Origin: a virus
Lineage: Duplodnaviria > Heunggongvirae > Uroviricota > Caudoviricetes
Strand: one strand, 5' to 3'
DNA: 49,242 nt
Virus record (IMG/VR): IMGVR_UViG_2690316195_000003
Shown: one piece after another, positions 1,534 to 49,242 of the stretch
How the letters are laid out: each line of letters opens with the position of its first letter
Numbering within the stretch: position 1 is the first letter of the stretch
Made by a program: the position numbers and the translations under genes
Notes under the pieces: model-generated
Seen by the model: only the letters and a program-made list of their open reading frames with translations
Database searches by the model: none
What the model was told of the DNA's origin: nothing

Positions 1534-2329
1534 AGAAATGACGTATGTTAAATAGATTGAAAAGATAAGATTCAAATCAATTAAATGACGCTTTAAAAAT
1601 AAGCGGCAGGATTTTATTCATCTGATAAAAATAGCGCAAGAGTTGTCTTATATGGAATATTCAGATAAGTCTTATTGAAAAAAACGGTATAACAAATACA
1701 TAACATTACGGCCATTATACATACATTATAAAAATTACAGAGATATTTAATTAAATCCAAAGCATTTTTTCAATATGGATTTCGAAGAACTTGTTATAGT
1801 ACATTAATCAATCAATTATTGGTATTTCGCTCACTGTTCATATAGTTTTAATACATCAATGCATAAGAACATTTTCTCATTCATAAAAGCGATAAAAACT
1901 GTTGTACCTTATATTGTTAATGTTTGGTAACAAAGACAAATCCAACAAGGCATTGATCATCCCCTATGATACCCATAGAAAGAATTATCTGACATATAAT
2001 AACGATATAAAGTATATTATTGCTAATGAAACTATATGATAGCTTCACATTCAGCAATACCTGCTCAACCTTATCTCTGGAAATGAACATTGCTAACTTT
2101 CCTACTCCTTAATCGTTCTCCCAGAGCGCATCATCCACACCGACAATCCCCTCAGGCATCAGCCAGGTGACATTTTCCGCTAATGGGCTGGTTCAGAGAT
2201 AAATAGTGCGTCCCCGGAAGCCAAGTCAAAGAGCATTTTTCCCCTGTGACCTTCAACGGCTACTTACTGTTTAAAAACAGCTACGATGCCAGCATAGATA
2301 CTCTTGAATACGATGTACTACGTTTTTTC

Positions 2330-3062
2330 TTATTCTGGACTGAACTCCCTAACCTGCTTCAAATCCAGGAGATTGCTCAGTTCCTCTTTCATTTCACGCT
2401 GATGACGATAAATCTCATTATTGCGATCAACCTGCGCCATAGCTGCAGCCAGCTCCTCCAGTTCCGTCATCGACAGTTTCACCTGCTGATTATCAGCATC
2501 ACTCCATGTCATAACGTCCCACTGCCCTGAGTTAGCCCCTGCAGCCATTACCACCGGGTAAAGGCGGGCCAGCGAGTCGGGGCCGCCATTCCAGGTGTGT
2601 CCGTTCCATTCGAATGTGAACGGCTGCGCTTCCTGTTCTGTGCGCCACACCTCGATTTCCCGCTTTCTGGCATCCTTTCCCACGGCGATAAGTTCTGGCG
2701 TGACGGTGAACGCAGGGCTGTCCAGTGGCGCTTTTGTTTTCGTCTCGTCCATGACGGTTTTGACAGCCTTTGGCGTGGCTGCCAGTACTTCGCTGTCGTT
2801 GTCTGTATCACTACAGAGTTGCGCCAGACCTTTTTTGTCGTGGAAGCATTGCTTCCCTTCAGATCATCAACTATCCATTGCGCCTCGTCCCTGTGCTGTT
2901 TCGCGCTCTGCTGCGCCTGCACCACAGTTTCCTGTCACCACGTCGGCAACTGTGCGCATCACACCTCTGAGGTGTTTACCCGGGATTTCAGAGTTATGTG
3001 GCATCCGTACATGGGGATGCCTGCGCCATCAATCAGCGCACCTGATATCACTACAGACATAG
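2330..3062 (-). pseudogene. side tail fiber (lambda Stf / stfR-like) remnant, truncated and frameshifted
   Basis: Minus-strand ATG at 3060 encodes MSVVISGALIDGAGIPMYGCHITLK (Stf-like N-terminus) then a stop after 33 codons; in another frame the conserved tail-fiber motif KGLAQL...LAATPKAVKTVMDETKTKAPLDSPAFT appears, continuing into the 140-aa ORF 2330..2752. Confidence 0.5.
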
Positions 3063-3083
3063 TTTTTCTCGCGATAAATTAAA

Positions 3084-3629
3084 TCAGGAAGAGGCTTCCA
3101 GAGAGACGGGCCATTCAATGGCGTTATATGAGGATTTATCAGTGATGGTGCTGAAATCCATCGCCTGCAGCGATTTCGCGTAAATGCGGTACGCTTTCAG
3201 CTTCTCCCTGTCGTCGTCACTGATTAATCCCAGCAGCAGGTCTTTTTCCCATTCGCTGGTCATGATGCTGACCCGTTGTAACAGGGCATCGCGCTCATCT
3301 TCCGCTTTAAGTTTGTAGTCGAAGACAAATTTATCGTCGCGGTAAAACCAGTAACCAGGCACGGTAATACGGCGGTTAGCGGTAATATCAGGAACTTCAA
3401 TAACACTGGCGTTACGGGGTTCAATGCCTGTCACATCCTTACCGACCCATACCACGCGCCCGTCTCCGGTGTAAACCATTTTTATGGTGTCACTGGCAAA
3501 ATTTTTCAGCTCTTCATACCAGTTTTGGTCATCTTCCGAAAAAAGCCAGGTGATACCATGTTGTTTTGTCATCTGATATTGTTCTGCGGTTTTCGGATTG
3601 CCTGCAGTAATATTTTTTAAATGCAACAT
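3084..3629 (-). CDS. tail fiber assembly protein (P2 gpG / Tfa family)
   Basis: N-terminus MLHLKNITAGNPKTAEQYQMTK...NWYEE...VIEVPDITANRR matches the Tfa signature; immediately downstream of the tail fiber gene. Confidence 0.8.
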   Translation of the reverse strand: MLHLKNITAGNPKTAEQYQMTKQHGITWLFSEDDQNWYEELKNFASDTIKMVYTGDGRVVWVGKDVTGIEPRNASVIEVPDITANRRITVPGYWFYRDDKFVFDYKLKAEDERDALLQRVSIMTSEWEKDLLLGLISDDDREKLKAYRIYAKSLQAMDFSTITDKSSYNAIEWPVSLEASS

Positions 3630-3631
3630 TG

Positions 3632-5185
3632 TTAAACACTCGCCACGTTATACCAGGTGCCGTTAATCAGTTTCTGAAGCGGTCGGTAATACACGCCGTT
3701 GACGTTATCCGCTGAATTTTTACCAGTATCCGATATCGATATCCCTGACAATCCGTGTCCCGCAGGAGCGTGATATGTCCAAGAGATTACATTGCTGCCA
3801 GGTTTGTAATACATTTCGGAACCATAGCGCACATCCTGCACGCCGCCATTTCGCTGCTGATAACGGGCATCGAAATTTCCATAGTTTGATGGGGTCATCT
3901 GTCCGTTTACAGCGAATGTGATACTGCCATCGGTATTTCTCTGGCTGTAAAAATGCCAGCCGGAATCATCACCAAGCTCTGCAACTACAGGTCGGGATGA
4001 ATTACCCCATAAATTAAACGTTGCGTTTTTCGTGGAGTTGTTGGCGCTGGATAACGTGAATTTTTTAGCATTTCCGGCCTGAATATTTTTTAACGCTATC
4101 GCCACACCATTCTGGAAACGAAATACATGCTGTCCATTCGCATAAACATCCAGAATGCCGTCGCCGTTTTGTTTTATACCTGTATCGTTATCCCCGAAAG
4201 CAATTGAGTTTCCGCCCAGCGCGTTCTGAACGCCGATACCCAGTGCACCATTGACCTGAGAACCACCGCCAACAGACACTTTATGCGACATGGATATCTC
4301 TCCTGTCCGCAAATTAATGGTGAGCGGACGCAGGGGACCAATATCTCCATTCTCGCCCTGACCTTCACTAGTAGGGATAAGGTGCAGGCACTCTTCAGAA
4401 CGGCGAAAAATAAGGCCAAAAGCCTCGTTAAAAATCCTCAATGCATTAACACCACGTATTTTCAGCTCCCCGGTCATCAAATCACCAGATTTTTTTACAT
4501 ATCGCAGATCAAAATCTGAATAGATATTGCCGGGGTTTATCACACTGAAATAGCTTTTCTCGCTATCAAGAAGGCAAATCAAAGGAATACCCTTAATGAT
4601 ATCATTCGCTACCAGCTCGGACTTGTTCCCCTTATAAAGTGGGAACGTACCAAGAACCTTTCCGCCTAGTGTTAGTTGAAGTGTCGCCGCGTTGGTATTG
4701 TTCTGAACGGGGAAAACTATAATCGGGGTTCGTAGCGTCCAATCTGTACCTCCATTAACAAAAAACGTCGAGGGAAGTTCCAGCGTCAGTGCGTTTGCAG
4801 TGCCACCAGTAACACCCGCAATATAATGACCGCTCTGAAGCTGCGCTATCTGTACGAAATAGTTTTCCGAACCACGCGTGGCAAAGTTAGCCACAACATC
4901 ATTAAGGGACCAACCTTTCGCGGTTGTTCCTTCCTGCCCACGAATGACTTTCAACACATCACCGCTTACCGATACCAAGTGACAAATCTCAAATGCAGAC
5001 TCTTTATTATCGGTAAGCGTAATTTTTGCATAGACGCGTTGCCCGTTCGATTTATTTTCAAAATCGGCAGAAAGCAATTTTGCAAATTTAGCCCCTGTAC
5101 CGGGCATTACCGGAATATCAGTCTGAATCGTGGTGATATCACCAGCCAGTGCTGAAACAACGTTATTGCCGAACCCAAGAATCAT
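3632..5185 (-). CDS. tail fiber protein with P2 gpH-like C-terminal domain
   Basis: C-terminal ~200 aa (NALGGNSIAFGDNDTGIKQNGDGILDVYANGQHVFRFQNGVAIALKNIQAG...YRPLQKLINGTWYNVASV) closely resembles the P2 H receptor-binding region. Confidence 0.85.
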   Translation of the reverse strand: MILGFGNNVVSALAGDITTIQTDIPVMPGTGAKFAKLLSADFENKSNGQRVYAKITLTDNKESAFEICHLVSVSGDVLKVIRGQEGTTAKGWSLNDVVANFATRGSENYFVQIAQLQSGHYIAGVTGGTANALTLELPSTFFVNGGTDWTLRTPIIVFPVQNNTNAATLQLTLGGKVLGTFPLYKGNKSELVANDIIKGIPLICLLDSEKSYFSVINPGNIYSDFDLRYVKKSGDLMTGELKIRGVNALRIFNEAFGLIFRRSEECLHLIPTSEGQGENGDIGPLRPLTINLRTGEISMSHKVSVGGGSQVNGALGIGVQNALGGNSIAFGDNDTGIKQNGDGILDVYANGQHVFRFQNGVAIALKNIQAGNAKKFTLSSANNSTKNATFNLWGNSSRPVVAELGDDSGWHFYSQRNTDGSITFAVNGQMTPSNYGNFDARYQQRNGGVQDVRYGSEMYYKPGSNVISWTYHAPAGHGLSGISISDTGKNSADNVNGVYYRPLQKLINGTWYNVASV

Positions 5186-5808
5186 TTTTGAATCACCGTT
5201 GTTGCATAAGAATAAATAAAAGGGAGTTTTACATATTTCTGGTCAATGGCATCTTTCAGAAAATAGCCTATACCATCACCATATTCTGGTATATGAATAG
5301 AAAAAACACTGTCCGACACAGTCACGCTCACATCAAAAGTGTGCTGCAACGGCGGGTCTATTCCGTTTTTCCCATGAATGAACCGTGCCACACGGCGCTT
5401 TAACCAGTCAATGCAGAAATGCGAACCGTCAGCCTTATAAAAATTCCAAGTTAATATTCGCTTGAAATAATCATCCGGAACATACGATGCCTGCCCCGGA
5501 ACATAATTCCGCATTGCCGCATAAGGGATTGTATTGTATTCAATGGTATCGTATGCGCCGCGTGCAATAGCCTCCTCGGAAACCTGTAGTAAAGGCCTTT
5601 CAACGCCATAAATCCCGAGAGCAATCCAGTCCAGCAATTGCCCGGTTATTGATTCCGATGTCCAGCATGGCAATGCCAGATTGTTGAGTGAATCGAGGTA
5701 TTCCTGAGCAATTTCATTGTATGCATCAAAGAACGCAACAACATTCGGATCATCTCTGTACTGCACAAACGGATAAGCAGGGAGAATTTTTTCAGTCAGA
5801 TATTGCAT
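5182..5808 (-). CDS. tail/baseplate protein (P2 gpI-position)
   Basis: ORF between the baseplate J-like gene and the tail fiber; start placed at the internal ATG (MQYLTEK) to limit overlap; start uncertain. Confidence 0.45.
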   Translation of the reverse strand: MQYLTEKILPAYPFVQYRDDPNVVAFFDAYNEIAQEYLDSLNNLALPCWTSESITGQLLDWIALGIYGVERPLLQVSEEAIARGAYDTIEYNTIPYAAMRNYVPGQASYVPDDYFKRILTWNFYKADGSHFCIDWLKRRVARFIHGKNGIDPPLQHTFDVSVTVSDSVFSIHIPEYGDGIGYFLKDAIDQKYVKLPFIYSYATTVIQK

Positions 5809-7018
5809 ACTTGTTAACTTGAACCTGTGATGCCACTGTCGAAAAATAGGAATAGGTATCGCCATAAACCAGGCTTGTGTCTTTTGCCGGAAGAACAATA
5901 TGACCATTAATGCCAATGCTCACACTGATTGTTGAGATCAACGTCGCATCAACCAGCAACCTGACAGAACTGGTAAAAATATCCTGGATACGCAGAAGAT
6001 TTATCGGGTGTCCGACTTCAATTGAATTGATGTAATCAGCAACGTTTTGCTGCACAGCCATAGCAATACCCGCCGGATCAACATAATCATCAGACACCGT
6101 GTTCCAGGTGATTAGCACCATGACGTTTTGTGATGACGGGATAACGAACGGCACCTGATAAACGTCCGGCGAAACGGTTATTGAAACCGTGCGTTTTTCC
6201 ACTGCCGCACCGGATGGATTGCTTACATCGTTGGTCAGTTTCGAAATATCCGGTACAGATTTGTAAATCGCATAAGCCACATCATACGGATCACCGCCAC
6301 CAACAACCGCAACCCATTTCCCCAGCGACGACTGCCGGAAAGAAATCAGGTTTTCTCGCACACCGCTTACTGATTTGAGCATCGCTTTATAGCAATCCGG
6401 TGTTCCCTGCACACCAAACATACCGGACTCCATGACTTCGGCGCGGTAAGATGCCCACGTCTGCGCCTCCTGACCTGGCATCCCTGCGGTAAGGTTCGTG
6501 CATTTTACAGGCTGGTCTTTTGGTACTGAGGTAATAACCTGCGTCACAGTCCCTTCCGGTACAGCCCATGAGCCTGACGTTGTGGCCACACAGTAGACTG
6601 GTTCAGTCTGCCCACTTTCCGGCACCACCGTATCGCGGGAAACTGCATACTGGTAGTTGCCATCACCGACAACAAATCCTTTAGGGATACCAAACCCCGG
6701 CAACGCCTCAAATACCACGTATACCGCCGTATTTGTACTTAATCCCTTCTGTGCTCCATAAATGTTTCCGAGTTGCATCAGTAACGGAATATTTGCGCCG
6801 TATGGGCTTACGGAGTTAATAAGGTCCACCCGCGCCTGGTCTATTAATGCCAGCGCCCCGACTGCCGTGCTGGCAAGGTCAGTAATAAGCCCCGCCGGAA
6901 GGTTGGCTGTATATCCAGGTACTTTTTCAGCAACTCTGATGATAAGATTTGCAAGCAAATCATTGGGTGGCGTAGGCTGCGCCCCCGCACTGGTCATAGT
7001 AATTGGTATTTCTGACAT
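5792..7018 (-). CDS. baseplate J-like protein
   Basis: 408-aa protein in the baseplate-wedge position upstream of the tail fiber; GGAG ribosome-binding site before the ATG at 7018. Confidence 0.6.
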   Translation of the reverse strand: MSEIPITMTSAGAQPTPPNDLLANLIIRVAEKVPGYTANLPAGLITDLASTAVGALALIDQARVDLINSVSPYGANIPLLMQLGNIYGAQKGLSTNTAVYVVFEALPGFGIPKGFVVGDGNYQYAVSRDTVVPESGQTEPVYCVATTSGSWAVPEGTVTQVITSVPKDQPVKCTNLTAGMPGQEAQTWASYRAEVMESGMFGVQGTPDCYKAMLKSVSGVRENLISFRQSSLGKWVAVVGGGDPYDVAYAIYKSVPDISKLTNDVSNPSGAAVEKRTVSITVSPDVYQVPFVIPSSQNVMVLITWNTVSDDYVDPAGIAMAVQQNVADYINSIEVGHPINLLRIQDIFTSSVRLLVDATLISTISVSIGINGHIVLPAKDTSLVYGDTYSYFSTVASQVQVNKYAISD

Positions 7019-7058: not shown

Positions 7059-8234
7059 TTATTCAACCTCTTCTAAACTGCTCACTCTGGACCCTCGGCG
7101 GAAATTATCATCATTTTTAACATACTCGTATGAATCCAGAATCAAACCAGATATGCGAAGTATATCTTCCGGATTAGTTATATGTATCCTTTTACCATCC
7201 GTATCAAGTCGAGCTCGTCTTATTTCATTCAACTGAACTTCACTAAGCGAAATAGGTAAAGTTATAAATGAAGATTTTTTATCATAAAATCTTAACAGCC
7301 ATCTATTAGTTTTACCATTCAATAGCACACCAAAATATGACTCAGTATCTTTATATTCTATATTATCTTCTGTTTGTATGATTTGTTTTACCCTTTCAAA
7401 TAGCTCCAATTCTTTGGCTGTGGTTATTATGTTGGGGTTTTCTTCATCAACAATGGCGTTATTAACTTGTGTATCCGTTGCATCATTTTCTTTAGTTTGC
7501 TCTACCGGTTGTGTAGATAGCCCGGAAACCACCATTGCGCTAACAGCGCGCTCAACGGCCTGTTTAACTAATGGAGTCACGAACTCAAGAAATCTCTGAT
7601 TAAGTTGTCTCTCAATATTTGAACGACTAGCAACATATCGAACAAACTCCAGATCAACTTCACGAAGACTAGAACTGATTGTTTTAGTAAATGAATTCAA
7701 ATAAACACTTTCTTCAGCCAGTGTCCGTAAAGCCTCTGGTTTGAATTTATCATAACGAAAACGAAATAATTGTGTAATATCGGAGTGAGTTAGAGAATCC
7801 ATTCTTATTTTTAAAAACGGCGTTGAATCCATTATGTTTTTTTGTTTCAAATCCGTAAAAAAACGCCATTCAACACCATTTGTAATGGCTGATATAGTAA
7901 CTTCCGGTGTTGAATTAAAATATCTTGATAGCTGTGGGCAGTGATTATCAATTTGTTCTGAAAACGATTTCGCCTCAATGAACATCACAGGAACATCATG
8001 ACAAAATAAAGCGTAATCAACCCGTTCATTAGCCTTAACCCCGGGGAAGTCAGCACTATACTCAGCTTTGACTTTTCTTGGATCATACGGAGTAAAACCA
8101 AGAATATCTAGTAATGGCATAATGAGTGCTTGTTTTGTCGTTTCTTCAGTTGTACAAAACACCCCCATTTTTGCAACATGCTCTGTGTGTATTTTTAACT
8201 TATTTGCAAAATTTTCCATGCTTGTCTCCTCCAT
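7059..8234 (-). CDS. PD-(D/E)xK nuclease-like protein (type I restriction HsdR N-terminal-like domain) with uncharacterised C-terminal half
   Basis: N-terminal region ...TKQALIMPLLDILGF...ERVDYALF...VMFIEAKSF... fits the D...(D/E)xK catalytic core; visibly AT-rich relative to flanking tail genes; strong ribosome-binding site ggaggagacaag before the ATG; own terminator. Confidence 0.55.
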   Translation of the reverse strand: MEETSMENFANKLKIHTEHVAKMGVFCTTEETTKQALIMPLLDILGFTPYDPRKVKAEYSADFPGVKANERVDYALFCHDVPVMFIEAKSFSEQIDNHCPQLSRYFNSTPEVTISAITNGVEWRFFTDLKQKNIMDSTPFLKIRMDSLTHSDITQLFRFRYDKFKPEALRTLAEESVYLNSFTKTISSSLREVDLEFVRYVASRSNIERQLNQRFLEFVTPLVKQAVERAVSAMVVSGLSTQPVEQTKENDATDTQVNNAIVDEENPNIITTAKELELFERVKQIIQTEDNIEYKDTESYFGVLLNGKTNRWLLRFYDKKSSFITLPISLSEVQLNEIRRARLDTDGKRIHITNPEDILRISGLILDSYEYVKNDDNFRRGSRVSSLEEVE

Positions 8235-8368: not shown

Positions 8369-8716
8369 TCATACCGGCACCTGCGTCCGGTAACTGGTCC
8401 CATTAAAAAACACAACATCGATGTTATAGGTGGGGTTATCTGCTCCATCTACCTTTGAAATTGCCAGTGATGCAAAATACCCAGCAAACTGTTGCTGAAC
8501 CATGTTCACATAGTAGTCTGGGTAAATCTGCTGCACGATGCACTGCTGTGCAGGAATACCGTAATTCGCGTAAAACGGCGACTCCCCCAATCCCAGCTTT
8601 AACGTCTGAATGAGCGTCGTCAGCCAGCCGTAGGAGAAATCACCGTTGGCGTCAGATTCTACTGCAACCCATTTTTTGTTGCCGTTCGCGTCGGTGACGC
8701 GGCCCCATGTTCTCAT
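8369..8716 (-). CDS. phage baseplate protein (gpW-position), function inferred from position
   Basis: 115-aa ORF between the spike-like and J-like genes; no motif recognised. Confidence 0.4.
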   Translation of the reverse strand: MRTWGRVTDANGNKKWVAVESDANGDFSYGWLTTLIQTLKLGLGESPFYANYGIPAQQCIVQQIYPDYYVNMVQQQFAGYFASLAISKVDGADNPTYNIDVVFFNGTSYRTQVPV

Positions 8717-8916
8717 CGTGCCCCCATCACTTTAACTAACTCTGTCAGTACTGGTGAAAAGGCAAATGCTAAAGCTACGAGTGCAGCGGTGTAATACATG
8801 CGTCGTAAGGTATTGCTTTTTGCCACTAATTTTAAGGCTTTCACAATCCAGTCTCCTCCGCTAAAATTAATCACGGAAGACCTCCAAACATACGTAATCA
8901 TCCCTTGCGTATTCAA
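8713..8916 (-). CDS. hypothetical small protein
   Basis: 67-aa ORF overlapping the start of the next gene by 4 bp; may not be real. Confidence 0.2.
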   Translation of the reverse strand: MNTQGMITYVWRSSVINFSGGDWIVKALKLVAKSNTLRRMYYTAALVALAFAFSPVLTELVKVMGAR

Positions 8917-8928
8917 GGTGAGAAACAG

Positions 8929-8966
8929 AAAACCCCGACTGGGCCAACAGTCGGGGTTTTCGTTTT
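8929..8966. terminator. bidirectional terminator-like hairpin inside the tail gene cluster
   Basis: aaaaccccgactg-ggccaa-cagtcggggtttt: 11-bp stem flanked by A-run and T-run; just downstream of the spike-like gene stop. Confidence 0.55.
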
Positions 8967-8998
8967 ATGGTCAGAATTTAAAGTGAAATGAACCGGTA

Positions 8999-9712
8999 TT
9001 AACCAGGATTTGGTTTCTTCGACGTAATCGTGCTGCTGCCGCTTTGAACACCAGTCACATCGTGGCTGTGGCCGCTGACGCTCACGCCGTTGATAACTGC
9101 ATCCATCTCGACATTAAGAGGACCAATCAGCGAAGCGGTTGTATCCTTCATCTGGGCTTTGTCCTGGACGATCGGTCCATTGAGGTGAATTTTCCCGTTC
9201 AGGAAAATATCTTCGGCCTCGAGGTAAACAGCTTTCGACTTTTGCCTGATTTCTTCCAGAGCCACCATTACCGAGCTACTGCCGTCCTCTGTTTTGAGGA
9301 TCGCGCCATCCGGACCGTACAAAACGATTTTTTGCGGATCTTCGTCGGACCACTCCTTGTTTGCCAATGGCACGAAAAACAGGGGAGTGAGCGACATCGA
9401 GTAAGAAAGCGTTGCCATACCGGTTCCCAATCCGGACACACCGCGCAGTGATACATCAGCGGCAATTGTTACTCCTCGATCGCCCGGCTGTATCGGGTAA
9501 CGGATATACGGGAATGTGGCGACAGGGATTGTTATCTGCGGGAAGTTGATCCCCTCCGGCAGCATATCAAACTGAACTGTCACTATTTGCCCGCAGATAT
9601 CGACAACATGGCAGGGCAATTCGCGGCCTTTAAGCTCGGCTTGCTGGTTACCAGAACTGGTCATCATCTCCGACAGTGTTCGGAGAAACGGTAATTTTTG
9701 AGCGTTTGACAT
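8999..9712 (-). CDS. baseplate assembly protein V / central spike-like
   Basis: 237-aa protein; size, position and C-terminal ...VSGHSHDVTG... segment are consistent with gpV-type spike proteins. Confidence 0.55.
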   Translation of the reverse strand: MSNAQKLPFLRTLSEMMTSSGNQQAELKGRELPCHVVDICGQIVTVQFDMLPEGINFPQITIPVATFPYIRYPIQPGDRGVTIAADVSLRGVSGLGTGMATLSYSMSLTPLFFVPLANKEWSDEDPQKIVLYGPDGAILKTEDGSSSVMVALEEIRQKSKAVYLEAEDIFLNGKIHLNGPIVQDKAQMKDTTASLIGPLNVEMDAVINGVSVSGHSHDVTGVQSGSSTITSKKPNPG

Positions 9713-39899: not shown

Positions 39900-39905
39900 A
39901 TCACC

Positions 39906-40328: not shown

Positions 40329-40350
40329 GAATCATTTGCCTCTTGATGTT

Positions 40351-40647: not shown

Positions 40648-40675
40648 CGAATGAACTCCAAAAACACACAGAAAT

Positions 40676-40755: not shown

Positions 40756-40770
40756 GGAGAATATTAAGCA

Positions 40771-41247
40771 ATGCTTAGTGGTAAAGACTTAGGCCGAGCG
40801 ATAGAGCAGGCCATTAACAAAAAAATCGCATCGGGATCCGTCAAATCAAAGGCGGAGGTCGCACGCCACTTCAAAATCCAACCACCATCAATTTATGACT
40901 GGATTAAGAAAGGCTCCATAAGTAAAGATAAACTTCCAGAATTATGGCGTTTCTTTTCTGATGTTGTTGGTCCAGAGCATTGGGGGCTTAACGAATACCC
41001 CATACCAACCCCCACCAATTCAGATACAAAAAGTGAACTTTTAGATATAAACAACCTTTATCAAGCAGCCTCTGATGAAATAAGAGCGATTGTAGCTTTC
41101 CTGTTATCTGGAAATGCTACAGAACCAGATTGGGTTGACCACGATGTTCGCGCCTACATAGCAGCGATGGAAATGAAAGTGGGTAAGTATCTGAAAGCTC
41201 TAGAATCTGAACGGAAAAGCCAGAACATCACAAAAACTGGAACTTAA
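40771..41247 (+). CDS. racR: prophage repressor (RacR-like)
   Basis: 158-aa protein with N-terminal helix-turn-helix (MLSGKDLGRAIEQAINKK...AEVARHFKIQPPSIYDWIKKG); divergent from the Cro-like gene; flanked by operator palindromes. Confidence 0.65.
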   Translation: MLSGKDLGRAIEQAINKKIASGSVKSKAEVARHFKIQPPSIYDWIKKGSISKDKLPELWRFFSDVVGPEHWGLNEYPIPTPTNSDTKSELLDINNLYQAASDEIRAIVAFLLSGNATEPDWVDHDVRAYIAAMEMKVGKYLKALESERKSQNITKTGT

Positions 41248-41320
41248 ACTTATATGGTCTGACGGAAAACTCCTGGATTCCGTTATTTAACCCCCCATCA
41301 CTTTCTCCTGTCGCCATCAC

Positions 41321-41385
41321 CTATTAGGTTACACCCAAAACATTAGGCATAGCCTATTGACAATCAATTAGGCATTACCTATAGT
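41321..41385. promoter_or_regulatory. second operator cluster (OL-like)
   Basis: ATTAGGCATAGCCTAT is the reverse complement of the site at 40704-40719; an additional partial copy is adjacent. Confidence 0.45.
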
Positions 41386-41554
41386 TCCAGCATACCACCC
41401 ACCCCGCCCCACAGAACGCCGGGCAATACTTCGAGTTACCAGGCAGTGGTAAGGGGTTAAGTAGCCAGCCCGAGGCGTATGAACATGACGGCGGGATTCA
41501 AATTTTGCAGTGCAGCAGTTAGTTCCGCCACCCGGCGTTAAGGGGAGAGATAAG

Positions 41555-41689
41555 ATGGTGCATTACGAAGTAGTTCAGTATTTGATGGATTGTTGCGATA
41601 TCACTTACAGCCAGGCTGTACAGGCTCTACGCAGCAACGACTGGGATCTCTGGCAGGCAGAAGCCTCTATCCGCAACAACAAAATGTGA
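41555..41689 (+). CDS. small early protein (44 aa)
   Basis: ATG preceded by aggggagaga ribosome-binding site; MVHYEVVQYLMDCCDITYSQAVQALRSNDWDLWQAEASIRNNKM. Confidence 0.3.
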   Translation: MVHYEVVQYLMDCCDITYSQAVQALRSNDWDLWQAEASIRNNKM

Positions 41690-41699
41690 GGTGCGAAAA

Positions 41700-41852
41700 A
41701 TGCAAAAAATCGACCTCGGCAATAACGAATCCCTGGTGTGCGGCGTGTTCCCCAACCAGGATGGAACGTTCACCGCCATGACGTATACCAAAAGCAAGAC
41801 ATTCAAAACTGAAACGGGCGCACGTCGCTGGCTTGCCAGAAATACTTGCTAA
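41700..41852 (+). CDS. small early protein (50 aa)
   Basis: ORF starting 10 bp after the previous stop; MQKIDLGNNESLVCGVFPNQDGTFTAMTYTKSKTFKTETGARRWLARNTC. Confidence 0.3.
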   Translation: MQKIDLGNNESLVCGVFPNQDGTFTAMTYTKSKTFKTETGARRWLARNTC

Positions 41853-42260
41853 TCCATTATTTGGATTAATTCAATATTCTCGCTGTAGGGGTATAGCAGA
41901 AACCACCAAAGCCCGGAGGTGGTGAAATAAAACCGGGCACAACACGAAGTCGCATTTCCGATATCCATAAAGAGTCGGTCTTGTCTGTTAAATTTAAATG
42001 GTGGGAGTGCGCCTCCGGTTGTGGATAACAACACTGCTGTGTGTAGTCTTGGCGGCATCAGTTTTTTCTTGAAGTTCGACTGATGTCCGCCCTTTTTAAA
42101 GTGAATTTTGTGATGCGGTGAATGCGGCTAAGCGCACGCGGCACAGTTAAAAGTCATGTTAGTCCTTATTGGTTTGGGTGGGAAAGCCGACTGTAATTGT
42201 TAACTGGTTGCAGTCACCTGGAGGCACTAGGCACCGCATCAACAAAGTTCATTTGTAAAA

Positions 42261-42494
42261 ATGGAGATAATTATGATTGCACATCACTTCGGAACTGATG
42301 AAATACCACGTCAGTGTGTGACTCCTGGTGACTATATTCTTCATGAAGGCCGGACATATATTGCCTCGGCAAACAATATTAAAAAGCGAAAACTTTATAT
42401 TCGTAACCTGACTACAAAAACATGCATTACTGACTGCATGATTAAAGTCTTCCTCGGTCGTGATGGTTTACCTGTAAAGGCGGAGTCATGGTGA
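42261..42494 (+). CDS. hypothetical early protein
   Basis: 77-aa ORF; overlaps the next gene via ATGGTGA. Confidence 0.35.
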
Positions 42495-42664
42495 TGACTA
42501 AGAAAATAAAATGTGCTTACCACCTTTGCAATAAAGAAATTGAAGAAAGCAAAAGTATTAAAAGACCACTTCATTTCATGCGTGGAGTTATCCCAACGAC
42601 GGAAATGAAAAAATATTGTAGTGAAAGTTGTGCCGAAAAAGACCAGATGGCACACGAACTTTAA
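42488..42664 (+). CDS. small Cys-rich (zinc-ribbon-like) protein
   Basis: 58 aa with Cys pairs CAYHLC and CSESC. Confidence 0.35.
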
Positions 42665-42738
42665 TTAACTGACTATTCGAAACTGAATTTATGCCAGCAA
42701 TGGCAGGGATTCGCTCAACCTTAATTAAGGAGAAAAAC

Positions 42739-43014
42739 ATGATTACCAATTATGAAGCCACTGTTGTAACTACCGATGACATTGTTCACGAGGTTAATCT
42801 GGAAGGAAAGCGTATTGGCTACGTGATTAAAACAGAAAATAAAGAAACCCCATTCACTGTGGTTGATATCGACGGTCCATCAGGCAACGTAAAAACACTT
42901 GATGAAGGTGTCACAAAAATGTGCCTGGTTCACATCGGAAAGAATCTGCCCGCAGAAAAAAAAGCCGGATTTCTGGCAACTCTGATTGCAATGAAATTAG
43001 GCGGTGAAATCTGA
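42739..43014 (+). CDS. hypothetical early protein
   Basis: 91-aa ORF with strong ribosome-binding site aaggag before the ATG. Confidence 0.4.
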   Translation: MITNYEATVVTTDDIVHEVNLEGKRIGYVIKTENKETPFTVVDIDGPSGNVKTLDEGVTKMCLVHIGKNLPAEKKAGFLATLIAMKLGGEI

Positions 43015-43115
43015 AAGAAATAGCCTGCGCCATACGCAGGCTATGAACAGTGTGTATCCGGCAAGATCATTCACTGAACAAAACGAATTTTAATCTGAGT
43101 TGAGGTTAAAAAACA

Positions 43116-46100
43116 ATGAGCACAAAACCACTCTTCCTGTTACGGAAAGCGAAAAAATCATCCGGTGAACCTGACGTCGTCCTGTGGGCAAGCGACGATT
43201 TTGAATCGACCTGTGCCACTCTGGACTACCTGATCGTTAAGTCAGGTAAAAAACTGAGCAGCTATTTTAAAGCTGTTGCCACGAATTTTCCTGTCGTTAA
43301 TGACCTGCCCGCTGAAGGTGAGATCGATTTTACCTGGAGTGAACGCTATCAACTCAGCAAAGACTCCATGACATGGGAACTAAAACCGGGAGCAGCACCA
43401 GACAACGCTCACTATCAAGGCAATACCAACGTCAACGGCGAAGACATGACTGAGATTGAGGAGAATATGCTACTCCCAATTTCTGGCCAGGAACTGCCCA
43501 TTCGTTGGCTTGCTCAACACGGCAGCGAAAAACCGGTAACGCACGTTTCACGCGACGGACTCCAGGCATTACACATTGCTCGGGCTGAAGAACTACCGGC
43601 TGTTACTGCCCTGGCTGTTTCCCACAAAACCAGCCTGCTCGACCCGCTGGAAATTCGCGATCTCCACAAACTGGTTCGTGACACTGACAAAGTTTTCCCT
43701 AATCCTGGTAATTCAAACCTGGGACTGATAACTGCTTTTTTCGAAGCATACCTGAACGCTGACTACACCGATCGAGGACTGCTGACAAAAGAGTGGATGA
43801 AGGGTAATCGTGTTTCACACATCACTCGCACGGCTTCCGGTGCTAATGCTGGCGGCGGAAACCTCACCGATCGCGGCGAAGGTTTCGTACACGATCTGAC
43901 GTCACTGGCGCGCGACGTAGCCACTGGCGTACTGGCCCGTTCAATGGATCTGGACATCTATAACCTTCATCCGGCACACGCTAAACGCATTGAGGAAATT
44001 ATCGCTGAAAATAAACCACCCTTTTCTGTTTTCCGCGACAAATTCATCACCATGCCTGGCGGGCTGGATTATTCCCGCGCCATCGTGGTTGCGTCCGTAA
44101 AAGAAGCACCAATTGGGATCGAGGTCATCCCCGCGCACGTCACTGAATATCTGAACAAAGTACTGACTGAAACCGATCATGCCAACCCTGATCCGGAAAT
44201 CGTGGATATTGCCTGCGGTCGCTCCTCTGCCCCGATGCCGCAGCGAGTAACAGAAGAAGGAAAACAGGATGATGAAGAAAAACCGCAACCATCTGGAACA
44301 ACGGCAGTTGAACAGGGAGAGGCTGAAACAATGGAACCGGACGCAACTGAACATCATCAGGACACGCAGCCGCTGGATGCTCAGTCACAGGTAAATTCTG
44401 TTGATGCGAAATATCAGGAACTGCGGGCAGAACTCCATGAAGCCCGGAAAAACATTCCATCAAAAAATCCTGTCGATGCCGATAAATTGCTTGCTGCATC
44501 ACGTGGTGAATTTGTTGACGGAATTAGCGACCCGAACGATCCGAAATGGGTTAAGGGGATCCAGACTCGCGATTCTGTGTACCAGAACCAGCCAGAAACG
44601 GAAAAAACCAGCCCGGATGTGAAACAACCTGAGGCAGTAGTGCAACAGGAACCGGAAATAGTCTGCAATGCCTGCGGTCAGACTGGCGGAGATAACTGCC
44701 CTGACTGTGGGGCGGTGACGGGCGACGCAACATACCAGGAAACATTCGATGAAGAGAATCAGGTTGAAGCTAAGGAAAAAGATCCGGTGGAAATGGAAGG
44801 CGCTGAACATCCGCACAATGAGAATGCTGGCAGCGATCCGCATCGTGATTGCAGTGATGAAACTGGTGAAGCGTCAGCTCCTGTAGCAACTGAAATCATG
44901 TGGCCGTCATATTTCGAGCCTGGCCGCTATGAAAACCTCCCGAACGAGGTTTATCACTCCGCCAACGGAATAAGCAGCACGATGCTGAAGGATGCCCGTA
45001 TCAGCCTGATGTATTACCACGGACGGCACATTGCCGGAACTATTCCGAACGAGGAAAGTGATGCACTGCTGCGTGGGCGGATCATTCACAGCTATGTTCT
45101 GGAAACGGATAAATTCGCTGATGAATATGCCATTCCGGTACCGGTTCCTGAATATGTGGTTACTACTTCTAGCGAACTGATCGCCATCATTAAAAAACAC
45201 AATGCCAGTCTGCCAGCACTGATGACACCAGAGCAGATGAAAGAGTGGATCGAAAGCTACAACAGCACTCTTATACAGCCACTGTCTGTAAGTGCCGGGG
45301 CCGAAGAAACAGGCATCCTTTACGGTTCGCTTCCGGTGGAATTTCGGCGTATTCCTGAGGGGGAAAAACACACAGCATCAGCAATGAAAGCCTGTATTAA
45401 AGAATACAACGCAAGCCTCCCTCCTCTGTTGAAAACCAGTGGAGCACGGGAGCAGCTTCTGGATCAAATTGAAACTGTAGACCCAGAACTGGCAAAAAAA
45501 GAACGTGCTAAATCTTTGCCTTACAACATCAGTGGCACAAAAGAGCAATTAACCGAAATCGCACGGAAAATTCGCCCGGAACTGGTGACACTGGAGGACT
45601 GGCAAAAACGCCAGCAAGAAGAAAATGCCGGGAAAACGTTTATCAGTCCTGAGATGTATGAACAGGCAAAAAATATTCACGCGGCACTGCAAAACAATAC
45701 CGATGCAGCAAGGCTACTCAACCACCCGGATCGCAAATCTGAAATCAGCTATTTCGGGTTTGATGAAGAAACCGGGCTGGAAATCAGGGTCCGTCCTGAT
45801 ATCGAAATCCGGCTGCCATACGAAAGCATTTGCGCTGACGTGAAGTCAGTCAGCCTCGGTTATGTGCGACAGGAACGACTTAAAGATCGCCTGCACCGTG
45901 AAATTATTGAGCGTGATTATCACCTCAGCGCCGCAATGTATTGCGATGTGGCAAACCTGGACAAATTTTTCTGGATCTTCGTCAACAAAGATGCTGGCTA
46001 TCACTGGGTGGCAGTCGTGGAAGCCTCGCAGGAACTCCTGGAACTTGGTCGACAGGAATATCGCCGGACGCTACGCCAGATAAACGAAGCCCTGGAGACA

Positions 46101-46187
46101 AACAACTGGCCAGCACCGATTACCGAAAGTTATACCGACGAATTAAACGACTTTGATCTTCGTCGTCTTGAAGCACTGAGCATCTGA
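43116..46187 (+). CDS. recE: exodeoxyribonuclease VIII (RecE), long form
   Basis: N-terminus [26 protein letters not shown]... and overall architecture match Rac RecE as recalled; 1023 aa. Confidence 0.8.
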
Positions 46188-46198
46188 GGAAGGACACA

Positions 46199-47251
46199 AT
46201 GAACGAATTAACTCAACAAGAAAATATTAACTCTAATGTTGCGGTTTTCAGCCCTCAGTCCCTGGCTGCAATTCAGACATTTTCCCAGGTAATGGCTTCC
46301 GGCATGGCTACTGTACCGGAACACCTCCGGGGAAATCCATCAGACTGCATGGCCATCACCATGCAGGCGATGCAGTGGCAAATGAACCCTTACGCAGTAG
46401 CTCAGAAAACTTTCGTTGTGAATGGTGTGCTCGGATATGAAGCGCAACTGGTTAATGCCGTAATCAGTACTCGTGGGCCGCTAACCGGGCGTATTGAATA
46501 TGACTGGTTCGGGCCGTGGGAAAAAATTATCGGGAAATTTGAAATCAGGAAGAGCGACAAAGGGAAAGAATATCGTGTACCTAGCTGGAAGCTGGCCGAT
46601 GAAAACGGGATCGGTGTTCGTGTCCAGGCAACACTACGCGGCGAAAGTAAACCACGCGTACTGGAATTACTTCTGGCGCAGGCCAGAACACGTAACTCAA
46701 CGCTATGGGCCGACGATCCTCGCCAGCAGCTTGCCTATCTAGCGCTGAAACGCTGGGCGCGCCTTTATTGCCCCGAAGTGATTCTTGGAGTGTACACCAG
46801 GGACGAACTGGACGAGCCACAGGAAAAAATCATTAATCCGGTTCAGGAACATAAAAACACTTCCGCTTGCCGCGCGGAACGTGAAACAACAATTATTGAG
46901 CAGGATGCCGGGGAAAACTGGATCGATGCTTTCCGTGAACGTATTGAGCAGGCACAAAGCACCGGGGAAACAACAGCACTTCGCCAGGAAGTGGAAGATC
47001 ATAAAAATACACTTGGCGCTCTCTATACGGAACTTAAAGGAAAAGTGGTTCAGCGTCATCACCGTCTCAATGCTATTGCCCGTATCGAGAAGATGATAAA
47101 TGACCTACCTTCTTCAGGTGATCCAGAAGCAGAACAAAAATTTACTGCTCTGGAAAATACGCTGAATGCTGCCCGGCCACATCTGGGTGAATTATATGAG
47201 GCGTATAAAACGACACTGACAGATATGAAACCAGAATATATCGGCTCCTGA
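46199..47251 (+). CDS. single-strand annealing protein partner of RecE (RecT/Red-beta-like; family uncertain)
   Basis: Occupies the recT position directly after recE; sequence differs from canonical K-12 RecT as recalled. Confidence 0.45.
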   Translation: MNELTQQENINSNVAVFSPQSLAAIQTFSQVMASGMATVPEHLRGNPSDCMAITMQAMQWQMNPYAVAQKTFVVNGVLGYEAQLVNAVISTRGPLTGRIEYDWFGPWEKIIGKFEIRKSDKGKEYRVPSWKLADENGIGVRVQATLRGESKPRVLELLLAQARTRNSTLWADDPRQQLAYLALKRWARLYCPEVILGVYTRDELDEPQEKIINPVQEHKNTSACRAERETTIIEQDAGENWIDAFRERIEQAQSTGETTALRQEVEDHKNTLGALYTELKGKVVQRHHRLNAIARIEKMINDLPSSGDPEAEQKFTALENTLNAARPHLGELYEAYKTTLTDMKPEYIGS

Positions 47252-47314
47252 TATTGACTTTGGCGGTGTAGCCTCACCGCCATCACAAAATTTTATTTTA
47301 TGAGAGAAAAGACA

Positions 47315-47509
47315 ATGCGGTATGAAAAAGTCAAACCATGCCCTTTTTGTGGTTGTCCATCAGTAACGGTGAAAGCCATTTCAGGATATTACCGCGCGAA
47401 GTGTAACGGATGCGAATCCCGAACCGGCTATGGTGGAAGTGAAAAAGAAGCACTCGAACGATGGAATAAACGAACCACTGGAAATAATAATGGAGGTGTT
47501 CATGTATAA
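47315..47509 (+). CDS. lar: restriction alleviation protein Lar
   Basis: 64-aa protein ...KPCPFCGCPSVTVKAISGYYRAKCNGCESRTGYGGSEKEALERWNKR... matches the Lar (RalR) family of Rac. Confidence 0.8.
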   Translation: MRYEKVKPCPFCGCPSVTVKAISGYYRAKCNGCESRTGYGGSEKEALERWNKRTTGNNNGGVHV

Positions 47510-47690
47510 AATTACCGCCACTATTGAAAAGGAAGGTGGCACTCCTACTAACTGGACAAGGTACTCAAAAACAAAATTAACCAAATCAGAATGCGAAAAA
47601 ATGCTCTCAGGTAAAAAAGAAGCAGGCGTTTCCAGAGAGCAGAAAGTAAAACTGATAAATTTTAATTGCGAGCAACTTCAGTCCTCGTGA
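47502..47690 (+). CDS. small early protein (YdaC-position)
   Basis: 62-aa ORF with ribosome-binding site ggagg before the ATG; overlaps the lar stop. Confidence 0.45.
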   Translation: MYKITATIEKEGGTPTNWTRYSKTKLTKSECEKMLSGKKEAGVSREQKVKLINFNCEQLQSS

Positions 47691-47789
47691 ATTGCATTGT
47701 ATTCAAATTAAAACTTCATAGCTGATTATTAATAATCAACATCGGGCGTCAATTTCAGTCTAACATTGGCGCCTGCCAGAGGTGATGCG

Positions 47790-48005
47790 ATGGCACAAGT
47801 AATCTTTAATGAAGAGTGGATGGTTGAATACGGCCTGATGCTTCGCACTGGTCTGGGGGCCAGACAAATTGAAGCATACCGCCAGAACTGTTGGGTGGAG
47901 GGCTTCCACTTCAAACGAGTATCTCCTTTAGGTAAGCCAGACAGCAAACGAGGGATTATCTGGTACAACTATCCAAAGATAAATCAGTTTATCAAAGACT
48001 CATGA
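47790..48005 (+). CDS. excisionase
   Basis: 71-aa protein [44 protein letters not shown]... immediately upstream of the integrase. Confidence 0.7.
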
Positions 48006-48006
48006 T

Positions 48007-49242
48007 ATGTCTAAATTACCAACAGGTGTCGAGATTAGAGGTAGAAACATTCGCATCTGGTTCATGTTTCGAGGAAAACGATGTCGGGAAACATTAAAAG
48101 GCTGGGAGATTACAAACAGTAATATTAAAAAGGCCGGAAATTTAAGAGCGCTGATAGTTCATGAAATAAACTCCGGTGAATTTGAGTATTTAAGACGTTT
48201 TCCCCAGTCCAGCACTGGGGCAAAAATGGTGACAACGAGAGTCATAAAAACGTTCGGGGAGCTTTGTGATATCTGGACAAAAATTAAAGAGACAGAGTTA
48301 ACAACAAACACAATGAAGAAAACGAAATCACAATTAAAAACACTCAGAATAATAATTTGTGAAAGTACCCCGATATCATATATTCGTTATAGCGATATCT
48401 TAAACTACCGGAATGAACTGCTGCATGGAGAAACGCTTTACCTGGATAATCCAAGATCCAACAAAAAAGGAAGAACCGTGCGCACAGTTGATAACTATAT
48501 CGCCCTGCTCTGTTCGCTGTTACGTTTTGCGTATCAGTCGGGATTTATATCAACCAAACCATTTGAAGGAGTAAAAAAATTACAGCGAAACAGAATAAAG
48601 CCTGACCCGTTATCTAAAACAGAATTCAATGCATTAATGGAAAGTGAAAAAGGACAGAGCCAAAACTTGTGGAAATTTGCCGTTTACTCCGGGCTTCGTC
48701 ACGGGGAACTGGCAGCTCTGGCGTGGGAGGATGTGGATTTCGAGAAGGGAATTGTGAATGTCAGAAGAAACCTGACGATACTTGATATGTTCGGTCCCCC
48801 AAAAACAAATGCCGGGATCCGGACGGTAACATTACTACAGCCAGCTCTTGAAGCACTGAAGGAGCAATACAAACTGACCGGGCATCATCGCAAAAGCGAA
48901 ATCACTTTTTATCATCGGGAGTACGGCAGAACCGAAAAGCAAAAACTGCATTTTGTTTTCATGCCCAGGATGTGTAACGGAAAACAGAAACCTTATTACT
49001 CGGTAAGCAGTTTGGGTGCGAGATGGAATGCAGCAGTAAAACGTGCTGGTATTCGCCGCCGTAATCCGTACCATACGCGACATACTTTTGCCTGCTGGCT
49101 GTTGACGGCAGGAGCGAACCCGGCATTTATAGCCAGCCAGATGGGGCATGAAACTGCGCAGATGGTGTATGAAATTTACGGTATGTGGATTGATGACATG
49201 AACGACGAACAGGTAGCTATATTGAATGCGCGGTTATCGTAG
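48007..49242 (+). CDS. intR: tyrosine integrase (Rac IntR-like)
   Basis: 411-aa protein with C-terminal catalytic region (...RHGELAALAWEDVDF...HTRHTFACWLLTAGANPAFIASQMGHET...Y...); stop codon is the last 3 nt of the window. Confidence 0.85.
   Translation: MSKLPTGVEIRGRNIRIWFMFRGKRCRETLKGWEITNSNIKKAGNLRALIVHEINSGEFEYLRRFPQSSTGAKMVTTRVIKTFGELCDIWTKIKETELTTNTMKKTKSQLKTLRIIICESTPISYIRYSDILNYRNELLHGETLYLDNPRSNKKGRTVRTVDNYIALLCSLLRFAYQSGFISTKPFEGVKKLQRNRIKPDPLSKTEFNALMESEKGQSQNLWKFAVYSGLRHGELAALAWEDVDFEKGIVNVRRNLTILDMFGPPKTNAGIRTVTLLQPALEALKEQYKLTGHHRKSEITFYHREYGRTEKQKLHFVFMPRMCNGKQKPYYSVSSLGARWNAAVKRAGIRRRNPYHTRHTFACWLLTAGANPAFIASQMGHETAQMVYEIYGMWIDDMNDEQVAILNARLS

Follow-up and report, generated by a model that had tools for sequence, protein, structure and literature searches.

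The DNA analysed here, a stretch of 49,242 nt from the viral record IMGVR_UViG_2690316195_000003 (the window, taken at its full length), joins early genes resembling those of Rac, the cryptic prophage of Escherichia coli K-12, to an apparently full set of genes for a contractile-tailed virion, and the question arises what kind of element this is: an intact relative of Rac, two neighbouring elements, or a relic that has lost the ability to form virions. From our point of view, the evidence allows considerable confidence that the window represents a single temperate-phage genome at the Rac site, namely a modular recombinant that belongs to the lambdoid prophages of the Rac family. Open reading frame (ORF) listing, composition profile and tRNA scan covered the whole window and describe a gene-dense element with zero tRNA genes by that scan. 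A long block of genes on the minus strand (0.2-39 kb) faces a block on the plus strand (41-49 kb); the latter closes with the gene of a 411-aa integrase, whose stop codon falls exactly on the last base of the window. Every function of a phage genome is present in a single set: one integrase, one repressor, one set of replication genes, one lysis cassette and one terminase.

The location of the element follows from near-identical chromosomes. By megablast against complete E. coli genomes, the best placement was the chromosome of strain A17 between ttcA and uspF/ompN, which is also the site of Rac in K-12. The window aligns end to end with A17 between ttcA and uspF; positions 550-25000 are 99.9% identical, and the right half is 99.7% identical. 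A seeming divergence of positions 1-550 from A17 was discarded, as it reflects just a copy-number change of a 78-bp tandem repeat (positions 608-849, within an adhesin gene), of which A17 has one unit more. As the window carries no flanks of its own, it is these related genomes that place the integration site at the 5' end of ttcA, with intR adjoining and uspF/ompN on the opposite side.

On both sides of the element, A17 has a core repeat of 15 exactly matching bp. The two att cores lie ~86 bp to the left of window base 1 (an imperfect copy with 15 exact bases) and ~77 bp to the right of base 49242 on the ttcA side, so that neither is inside the window, and the att core of the related prophage Rac-SA53 found no match in the window even with 3 mismatches. 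Because of this absence, the boundaries were drawn from A17, from a prophage at the same site in strain A2 and from K-12. Positions 1-75 match the right end of K-12 Rac, base 1 lying ~84 bp inside the annotated K-12 prophage boundary, and positions 1-171 are 93.6% identical to the sequence of Rac-SA53 just inside its annotated att site. Judged by these alignments, the window contains nearly the entire prophage and lacks about 0.1 kb on either side. A first-pass annotation of this DNA had proposed a complete prophage at 2246-49242; all features it described are indeed inside those limits, but the left start was wrong, since the prophage reaches base 1 and a start at 2246 omits 2.2 kb, namely part of a set of fibre remnants (2148-3060) and a YadA-like gene (247-1575). 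The outermost segment reads as follows:

1-246, strand not assigned: right arm inside attR, with TTGCCCCATTT-type repeats at 20-60 that are likely Int arm-type sites.

Three repeats of the type TTGCCCC(A/T)TTT are found at 20-60, and related GGGGCAAA-type repeats occur just past the int stop codon in A17. The repeats at the left end and on the int side are likely arm-type IntR binding sites that flank the att core.

The kinship to Rac is carried by the integration, early and immunity arm, whose features are:

36445-39055, minus strand: replication region with a DUF977 protein, a DUF1627 protein that resembles YdaW, a lambda P-like protein (153 aa) and a protein with a DnaT-type DNA-binding domain (304 aa).
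39906-41247, both strands: immunity region with ydaT and ydaS (minus) and racR (plus), 97.4% identical to K-12 at the nucleotide level.
41555-47251, plus strand: early left operon with ydaG, ydaF, kilR, ydaE, racC, an intact recE (1023 aa) and recT (350 aa).
47315-49242, plus strand: ralR with the RalA antisense small RNA (sRNA), a DUF1187 protein matching RcbA, xisR and intR, with 96.8-100% protein identity to K-12.

Compared by blastn with Rac of MG1655 (NC_000913, 1409000-1437000; protein identities were computed separately), the window shows five collinear blocks (47261-49242, 41878-44885, 39905-41831, 37204-37688 and 27784-28081) that total 7.7 kb at 91-97% nucleotide identity. Between 39.9 and 49.2 kb the gene order of K-12 Rac is kept at 96-97% nucleotide identity. 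The integrase IntR is 98.5% and XisR, which has been shown experimentally to be the Rac excisionase (PMC4632033), 100% identical to K-12, followed by RcbA (96.8%), RalR (96.9%), RacC and KilR (96% each), YdaF (94%) and YdaG (89%). The RalA sRNA is found on the minus strand at 47508-47686 (Rfam RF02694, 215 bits). In the immunity region, RacR is 99.4%, YdaS 100% and YdaT 100% (aa 1-127) identical to K-12; RacR scores 245 bits on the NCBI equivalog NF049929, which has a cut-off of 200, and YdaS matches P22_Cro and HTH_3 of Pfam. By these comparisons, the prophage carries the immunity specificity of K-12 Rac. Beyond these genes, YdaW (96.7% over aa 1-151) and YnaK (92% over aa 1-89) are matched in part, and RecE is 83% identical to K-12 over aa 1-736 and diverges after residue 736.

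Several early genes differ from those of K-12 Rac. RecT found no tblastn match there and represents a different allele, with 64% identity to RecT of Rac-SA53. The sieB gene of K-12 Rac is absent from the window, and replication in the window is assigned to the DnaT-type domain protein and the P-like protein, whereas K-12 Rac has ydaU/ydaV. Within the replication region, which matches PF06163, PF07789, PF06992 and PF17948 and is 90-97% identical to Rac-SA53, only the N-terminus of YdaW finds a counterpart in K-12. The first-pass annotation had described the integration and early region as Rac-like; the whole-prophage comparison bears this out in the five collinear blocks, IntR, XisR, the RacR equivalog and RalA, and the early region is related to Rac rather than unrelated.

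What is joined to this arm is a block of packaging, head and tail genes on the minus strand. Genes were named by PHROG and Pfam profiles, and names of the Prokaryotic Genome Annotation Pipeline (PGAP) were taken from the A17 counterparts; PHROGs were the informative library, as Pfam and NCBIfam leave most structural proteins unnamed. The block holds 24 ORFs for packaging, head, sheath, tube, tape measure, baseplate and fibre, all uninterrupted, from ~25249 (within terS) to 3084:

23724-26346, minus strand: terL (442 aa), terS (363 aa; 25042-26133) and a 69-aa protein (phrog_2, phrog_51, phrog_309).
18535-23705, minus strand: head genes, namely major head protein (342 aa), a 205-aa protein, a DUF2213 protein resembling a scaffold/protease (440 aa), head morphogenesis protein (277 aa) and portal (478 aa).
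16200-18478, minus strand: four proteins of 314, 146, 146 and 156 aa at the neck/head-tail joining position, with a putative role that follows from this position.
13794-16200, minus strand: chaperone-position protein (205 aa), tube-position protein (143-147 aa) and tail sheath (445 aa).
11654-13732, minus strand: tape measure with a C-terminal lytic transglycosylase domain (692 aa; phrog_7694, phrog_2276, phrog_873).
8369-11650, minus strand: baseplate and hub genes, namely a 115-aa protein, a 237-aa baseplate protein, a 335-aa hub, an 88-aa and a 222-aa protein.
5182-7018, minus strand: baseplate wedge, with Baseplate_J (408 aa; phrog_6, PF04865) and a 208-aa protein at the position of P2 gpI.
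3084-5185, minus strand: primary tail fibre (517 aa, 3632-5185) and Tfa (181 aa, 3084-3629), matching PHROG tail fibre families, phrog_136 and Pfam Caudo_TAP.

The head genes match phrog_264, phrog_2229/530, phrog_324 and phrog_146 as well as PF06381 and PF09979. The portal gene (22269-23705, minus strand) matches Phage_portal_3 of Pfam in addition to phrog_146 and directly follows terL; we consider the PGAP name of the 478-aa homologue in A17, 'anti-CBASS protein Acb1 family protein', to be misleading in view of these profiles and this place. The hub matches phrog_196 at 7.9e-43, one gene of the baseplate set is named 'phage baseplate protein' by PGAP, and the homologue of the tape measure in Rac-SA53 is annotated as a lytic transglycosylase. 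With terS, terL, portal, head, sheath, hub and Baseplate_J identified, the earlier description of full packaging, head and contractile-tail gene sets joined to a Rac arm holds.

The contractile nature of the tail depends above all on the 445-aa protein, which matches phrog_205 ('tail sheath') at 3.9e-52 over aa 4-443 and shares 37% identity, across 98% of its length, with its counterpart in myoviruses verified by electron microscopy (EM). By tblastn, an unbroken run of 22 genes that starts with terS and ends one gene beyond Baseplate_J is collinear with Yersinia phage vB_YenM_29.18 at 30-58% amino acid identity, and this phage was induced by mitomycin and shows an isometric head with a contractile tail in EM (PMC9224151). 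The collinearity extends to genes that profiles leave without a function: the four proteins of 314, 146, 146 and 156 aa fall into PHROG families of unknown function and are 33-38% identical to their Yersinia phage counterparts, the tube- and chaperone-position proteins likewise match only PHROG families of unknown function (39% and 30% identity), and their proposed roles as tube and chaperone come from position and collinearity only. All five baseplate/hub genes (29-52% identity), Baseplate_J (46%) and the 208-aa protein (39%) have collinear homologues in vB_YenM_29.18, the comparison of the 208-aa protein with gpI being one of gene position only.

The same sheath family and gene order are found in Pantoea phage PdC23 and in the Klebsiella phages Chronis and RothC/D. 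Identity of the sheath to its PdC23 homologue is 38%, and the gene order and sizes of PdC23 match those of the module. PdC23 is placed in Felixviridae, as is Chronisvirus, the genus that takes its name from Chronis, and on these comparisons the module belongs to the lineage of the Yersinia vB_YenM_06.16-1-group phages and of Felixviridae (Certevirus, Chronisvirus). The likeness to these temperate phages consists in the collinear module from terS to baseplate and in lambda-like early regions; they differ in being distant in sequence and in having other integrases, immunity, lysis genes, fibres and hosts. The early half of the window in particular is Rac-type and unrelated to PdC23.

A kinship to Mu/SfV-like phages, which the first-pass annotation had suggested as a comparison, is refuted at the level of sequence. 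Mu, SfV and P2 are, like the present element, enterobacterial temperate myoviruses with a simple baseplate, and they share a homologous fibre tip and Tfa chaperone with it, but no structural protein besides the fibre C-terminus and Tfa, which relate to Mu S and U', was matched in any of the three (tblastn, E<1e-3). In hhalign, the sheath profile was negative against Mu L and against an alignment of the Mu, SfV and P2 sheaths, with a probability below 1%, and none of the P2-type head and tail genes Q, P, O, N, FI, FII, V, W, J and I was matched, only fibre aa 311-517 and Tfa.

It can be asked whether the tail is contractile at all, or whether the 445-aa protein is a structural protein other than a sheath, in a siphovirus with a complex baseplate. 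The negative hhalign result speaks for such a tail, and so do several points that count against a sheath: the call is made from a PHROG profile and synteny, the protein itself is without match in Pfam, NCBIfam and PDB sequence searches, and its AlphaFold2 model is poor (pLDDT 52.9 from a 25-sequence alignment). A repeat search of a large database with the sheath alignment returned the same close homologues and no added diversity, and PDB sequence searches with the sheath, tube and capsid proteins and profiles gave nothing useful. The full-length match to phrog_205 and the EM-shown myoviruses among the collinear relatives argue in the other direction, as does the order of genes, in which the 445-aa gene precedes a tube-sized gene, a chaperone-position gene and the tape measure, with Baseplate_J further downstream. 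Furthermore, 2 of 10 aligned sheath homologues match DUF3383, a name also given to a 504-aa structural protein in the annotation table of Pseudomonas phage JJ01, which we take to be a PB1-like myovirus. Even the low-confidence model of the sheath draws, in Foldseek against the PDB, weak matches (TM ~0.2) that are mostly sheaths (phiCD508, Lin1278, Milano, E217 and P1). We hence consider a non-contractile tail very improbable, and the contractile-tail assignment, which is not structurally proven, to be well supported by profile and gene order.

The 'P2-like tail fiber' of the earlier description stands in part. Identity to P2 is 61% for fibre aa 311-517 (with gpH) and 40% for Tfa (with gpG), while the rest of the fibre is not P2-like; the fibre C-terminus is also 30% identical to Mu S and Tfa 48% identical to Mu U'. 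By these identities, fibre tip and chaperone form a cassette of the P2 H/G and Mu S/U type, and the rest of the module is of another lineage.

How the two halves came together can be read from other Rac-site prophages. K-12 Rac aligns with the full-length prophage of strain EcPF14 (NZ_CP054230.1) in three blocks at 98.6-99.7%, and is therefore a derivative of an EcPF14-type siphovirus prophage that has lost two segments: the first reached from IetAS across the Q-like gene into the lysis region, the second from terS to the tail tube. The late genes of EcPF14 are siphovirus-type, with a P22-family capsid, a tail tube and a long tape measure. The window and EcPF14 have 16.5 kb in common, including IetAS, the Q-like region, ParB, a TAGT-family gene and terS, and this similarity ends at ~25249 inside terS: to the right, identity to EcPF14 and to vB_EcoS-* records is 95.6-96.9%, and to the left, where the myovirus module lies, there is no match, so that the last ~69 codons of terS travel with terL. 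Since the similarity breaks inside terS, the window is a recombinant within the Rac family whose late arm was swapped at the terS/terL boundary. The C-terminal part of TerS, which would bind TerL, seems to have travelled with the new TerL.

K-12 Rac and EcPF14 share with the window the site, the immunity and 96-97% nucleotide identity over int-xis-ralR, racC-kilR, the RecE N-terminus and racR-ydaS-ydaT; they differ from it in their siphovirus-type late genes with lomR and stfR, and in sieB, a K-12-type recT, ydaU/ydaV, trkG and an EssD/RrrD lysis cassette. In tblastx, the late-gene remnants of K-12 had no match in the tail module of the window; with ynaA, lomR and stfR/tfaR, only the N-terminus of YnaK/ParB and small stfR/tfaR fragments at 2148-2836 were found. 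As such, the proposal of an intact relative of Rac applies insofar as this is an apparently complete prophage of the Rac family, but it is not the intact form of K-12 Rac, the late genes of which are siphovirus-type and unmatched.

That the late remnants of K-12 Rac are unrelated to the module, together with local differences in GC content along the window, could also suggest two adjacent elements, with the early arm derived from a Rac remnant and the late arm from an unrelated element, either a myovirus prophage or a tailocin cluster. Yet the window has one integrase and one repressor only, and no genes for integration, immunity or replication belong to the late arm itself. The Q-like gene, the lysis genes, ParB and terS are contiguous and the junction falls inside terS; Rac-SA53 and the phage record pPE4 show the same joined architecture in single-genome records, and the Yersinia relatives likewise pair the module with lambda-like early genes. 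A tailocin is excluded because head and terminase genes are present. We regard two adjacent elements as extremely improbable, and proceed from a single recombinant genome.

The mosaic itself is not new, judging from deposited sequences. Rac-SA53 (KU052037.1, 52.3 kb, Jobling 2016), which its author described as one of several 'full-sized Rac-like prophages' (PMC5917428), lies at the same ttcA-uspF site and has the same myovirus module in the same gene order, with most module proteins 90-100% identical (major capsid protein (MCP) 100%, sheath 96%, Baseplate_J 98.8%) and similar early proteins (IntR, XisR and RalR 98-100%, KilR 98.6%, RecE 85%). Rac-SA53 differs from the window in its immunity, which is of the DicA/DicC type, in the toxin genes for LT-IIa and EplBA, in an IS1 and in its terS, which the record annotates as a deletion fusion, whereas RacR immunity, IetAS, an AraC regulator, an HSDR_N gene, ParB with TAGT and an intact terS belong to the window. 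'Actinobacillus phage vB_Apl-pPE4' (47.5 kb; pPE4) shows the same architecture as a single genome that ends inside its own int gene. Near-identical copies exist in RefSeq, namely the A17 prophage (NZ_CP028757.1, 2271962-2319894) and its sisters in mip270_05, JNU and EC11, with 99.7-99.9% nucleotide identity over ~45.6 kb, the structural genes of A17 being identical or nearly so to those of the window. The sole large difference from A17 concerns positions 32843-36480 (3.6 kb, IetAS), where A17 has a 2.3-kb segment with a hypothetical protein, KilA-N and hokD. In addition, A17 has an internal stop in recE and a frameshift in the racC-like gene, whereas recE (43116-46187, plus strand) and the racC-like gene (42691-43014, plus strand) of the window are intact. 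At least 80% of the structural half is held by 36 of 5426 complete E. coli genomes. What looks particular to this copy is that it combines RacR immunity, the myovirus module and IetAS and appears undamaged in its genes.

Functional members of the Rac family have been reported. KingRac can be induced weakly by mitomycin, gives rise to particles and, in the mouse gut, took the place of K-12 Rac (PMC6731689); by a rule of thumb, its 249-nm tail looks too long for a 692-aa tape measure. Rac-like prophages of O157 were reported to infect other strains after excision (PMC4632033).

Whether the present element is a functional phage or a relic turns on its integrity. All A17 ORFs annotated by PGAP outside the swapped island and the YadA gene have stop-free counterparts in the window at 99.6-100% nucleotide identity. 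For 23 of the 24 morphogenesis genes and an inserted nuclease-like gene, the identity to the A17 coding sequences is 99.85-100% and there is no internal stop. The morphogenesis proteins align end to end with those of Rac-SA53 except TerS, the DUF2213 protein and the tape measure, and with those of pPE4 in all cases but TerS. As all module genes are uninterrupted, the prophage is apparently complete, and among the structural genes, for which the first-pass annotation had named inactivating lesions as the outcome that would speak against it, none was found that is clearly inactivating.

Other observations weigh against a fully functional phage. The att sites lie outside the window, and the integrity of its ends is deduced from A17 and A2. 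No Rz-like inner-membrane spanin was recognised after the M15 endolysin. RacR is without a Pfam domain and no LexA-like S24 autocleavage domain was detected in it, and an antirepressor gene, which Rac-SA53 and pPE4 carry, is absent from the window. Finally, the second of two fibre cassettes is degraded, and the region next to attR consists of:

2148-3060, minus strand: decayed second fibre/chaperone cassette, with a 33-aa N-terminal stub, a DUF4376 C-terminal fragment and a Tfa fragment.
247-1575, minus strand: YadA-like trimeric autotransporter adhesin (Pfam YadA_head, YadA_stalk, YadA_anchor), a low-GC (~0.36) cargo gene.

In A17, PGAP marks the pieces of the second fibre as partial or frameshifted. 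Rac-SA53 has an intact tail3 of 1061 aa and tail4 at this site, of which only fragments align to the window, and the cassette of pPE4 is also intact. The leftmost 2.7 kb, with fibre remnants and adhesin, are 98.7% identical to the same site in strain A2, the prophage of which has lambda-like tails, and this is consistent with a conserved relic next to attR. On the available sequences, neither the decay of the second fibre nor the missing match to an Rz-type spanin nor the lack of an S24 domain and an antirepressor is clearly inactivating.

From these findings one could imagine an element that is complete in its ORFs but cryptic, grounded and without infectious virions, kept for its cargo (IetAS, adhesin, AraC regulator, RalR/RalA and KilR). 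The decayed left 2.7 kb, shared with the differently tailed prophage of A2, would fit such a relic, as would the pseudogenes of recE and racC already present in the near-identical A17 copy, the spanin, S24 domain and antirepressor that were not found, and the weak induction of the related KingRac. The 24 of 24 intact morphogenesis ORFs, accompanied by intact integration, replication and lysis genes, point the other way. Moreover, the morphogenesis proteins are 95-100% conserved across Rac-SA53 and pPE4 save TerS, chaperone, tape measure, hub, fibre and Tfa, and since these two differ in immunity region and cargo, this is the pattern expected of a module under purifying selection. The deposition of pPE4 as a phage genome that ends inside the integrase gene is consistent with a circularly permuted record. 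Taken together, we think it rather unlikely, though it deserves serious weight, that the element is such a grounded relic. That it is a live, transmissible myovirus which carries exactly the immunity of K-12 Rac (RacR 99.4%, YdaS 100%), and thus the natural functional phage for that switch, we put forward tentatively, with a chance slightly short of even.

The remaining genes of the single recombinant genome concern lysis, late control, cargo and defence:

7059-8234, minus strand: low-GC (~0.39) moron encoding a 391-aa nuclease-like protein with an HSDR_N domain (PF04313/PF13588, phrog_4225 'endonuclease').
26324-28037, minus strand: ParB/Srx-N protein (262 aa; phrog_620) and an overlapping TAGT-family glycosyltransferase (310 aa; PF20691, 2.4e-34).
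28596-29866, minus strand: lysis cassette with two holins, an M15 endopeptidase endolysin and a 63-aa lipoprotein, named after PGAP in identical A17 genes.
30042-32443, minus strand: AraC-family regulator (247 aa, 30042-30785), a DUF1133 protein resembling antiterminator Q, DUF1364 and DUF1367.
32858-36251, minus strand: anti-phage defence pair IetS (754 aa) and IetA (384 aa).

The 63-aa lipoprotein (28596-28787, minus strand), encoded after the M15 endolysin, shows an LVGC lipobox in its translation. The AraC regulator matches HTH_18 and HTH_AraC of Pfam, and the region of the Q-like, DUF1364 and DUF1367 genes is 74-93% identical to q, ybcO and irsA of Rac-SA53. Its location between the Q-like gene and the holins is the slot co-transcribed with the late genes, where Rac-SA53 has the pertussis-like toxin genes eplBA. 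PADLOC identified IetS (1.3e-300) and IetA (8.9e-143), with Peptidase_S8 and AAA domains in Pfam, and the two ORFs overlap at 35097-35122. The pair fills a variable slot between the replication genes and the Q-like region, and the siphovirus-type Rac of EcPF14 carries the same IetAS. Near the position of hokD in A17, an intergenic stretch (32710-32800, plus strand) contains a 28-aa hydrophobic ORF, MENNKSAHYAPFLSVILFVFCCVWAVFL, followed by a GC-rich hairpin; the ORF may be a small membrane toxin or noise.

The HSDR_N moron is inserted, in the orientation of the tail genes, between the gene of the 115-aa baseplate-module protein and that of Baseplate_J. Rac-SA53 and pPE4 lack this gene and have ant and 1-2 further ORFs (two in Rac-SA53) on the opposite strand at that site. 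As its product has no match in PADLOC, the gene is a candidate for an uncharacterised defence or exclusion function. The ParB and TAGT genes, just upstream of terS, overlap by 8 nt, and the first 89 aa of ParB are 92% identical to YnaK of K-12, ynaK being a remnant of the parB gene. For the pairing of ParB and TAGT no literature was found, and no gene for a TET/JBP protein or a hydroxymethylase occurs in the window; the two may form a DNA-modification module.

In this genome, the left arm runs from intR-xisR over ralR/RalA, recET, kilR, racR-ydaS-ydaT and the replication genes to the Q-like region, with the siphovirus late genes of Rac replaced, beginning in the C-terminal third of terS, by the 24-gene module for packaging, head and contractile tail. 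In the life cycle that we propose, RacR would repress divergent promoters of ydaS (Cro-like) and ydaT (CII-like), and loss of repression would lead to early transcription and then to excision by XisR and IntR. Replication would be carried out by the DnaT-domain and P-like proteins and late transcription would depend on the Q-like protein, before a myovirus virion is assembled and the cell lysed by the holins and the M15 endolysin. IetAS, the HSDR_N nuclease-like gene, the AraC regulator and the YadA-like adhesin are accessory cargo at usual moron slots. If the phage is live, induction would proceed by a route independent of RecA-stimulated repressor cleavage, because neither an S24 domain nor an antirepressor was found.

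For the family as a whole, the import of this copy may go little beyond cataloguing, given that the same module was deposited in 2016 with Rac-SA53 and that functional Rac-family phages have been shown experimentally. The comparison with EcPF14 and K-12 nevertheless provides a clear-cut case of module exchange, its breakpoint falling inside terS, and it shows the origin of K-12 Rac from a siphovirus-type relative by two deletions. As this copy pairs the myovirus module with the RacR immunity of K-12, it could serve as a working phage for the RacR/YdaS/YdaT switch. If the element is indeed live, a repressor and switch so far studied only in a defective element would gain a functional phage, to which K-12 would be immune and Rac-free strains permissive, and which could replace or recombine with resident Rac remnants, like KingRac.

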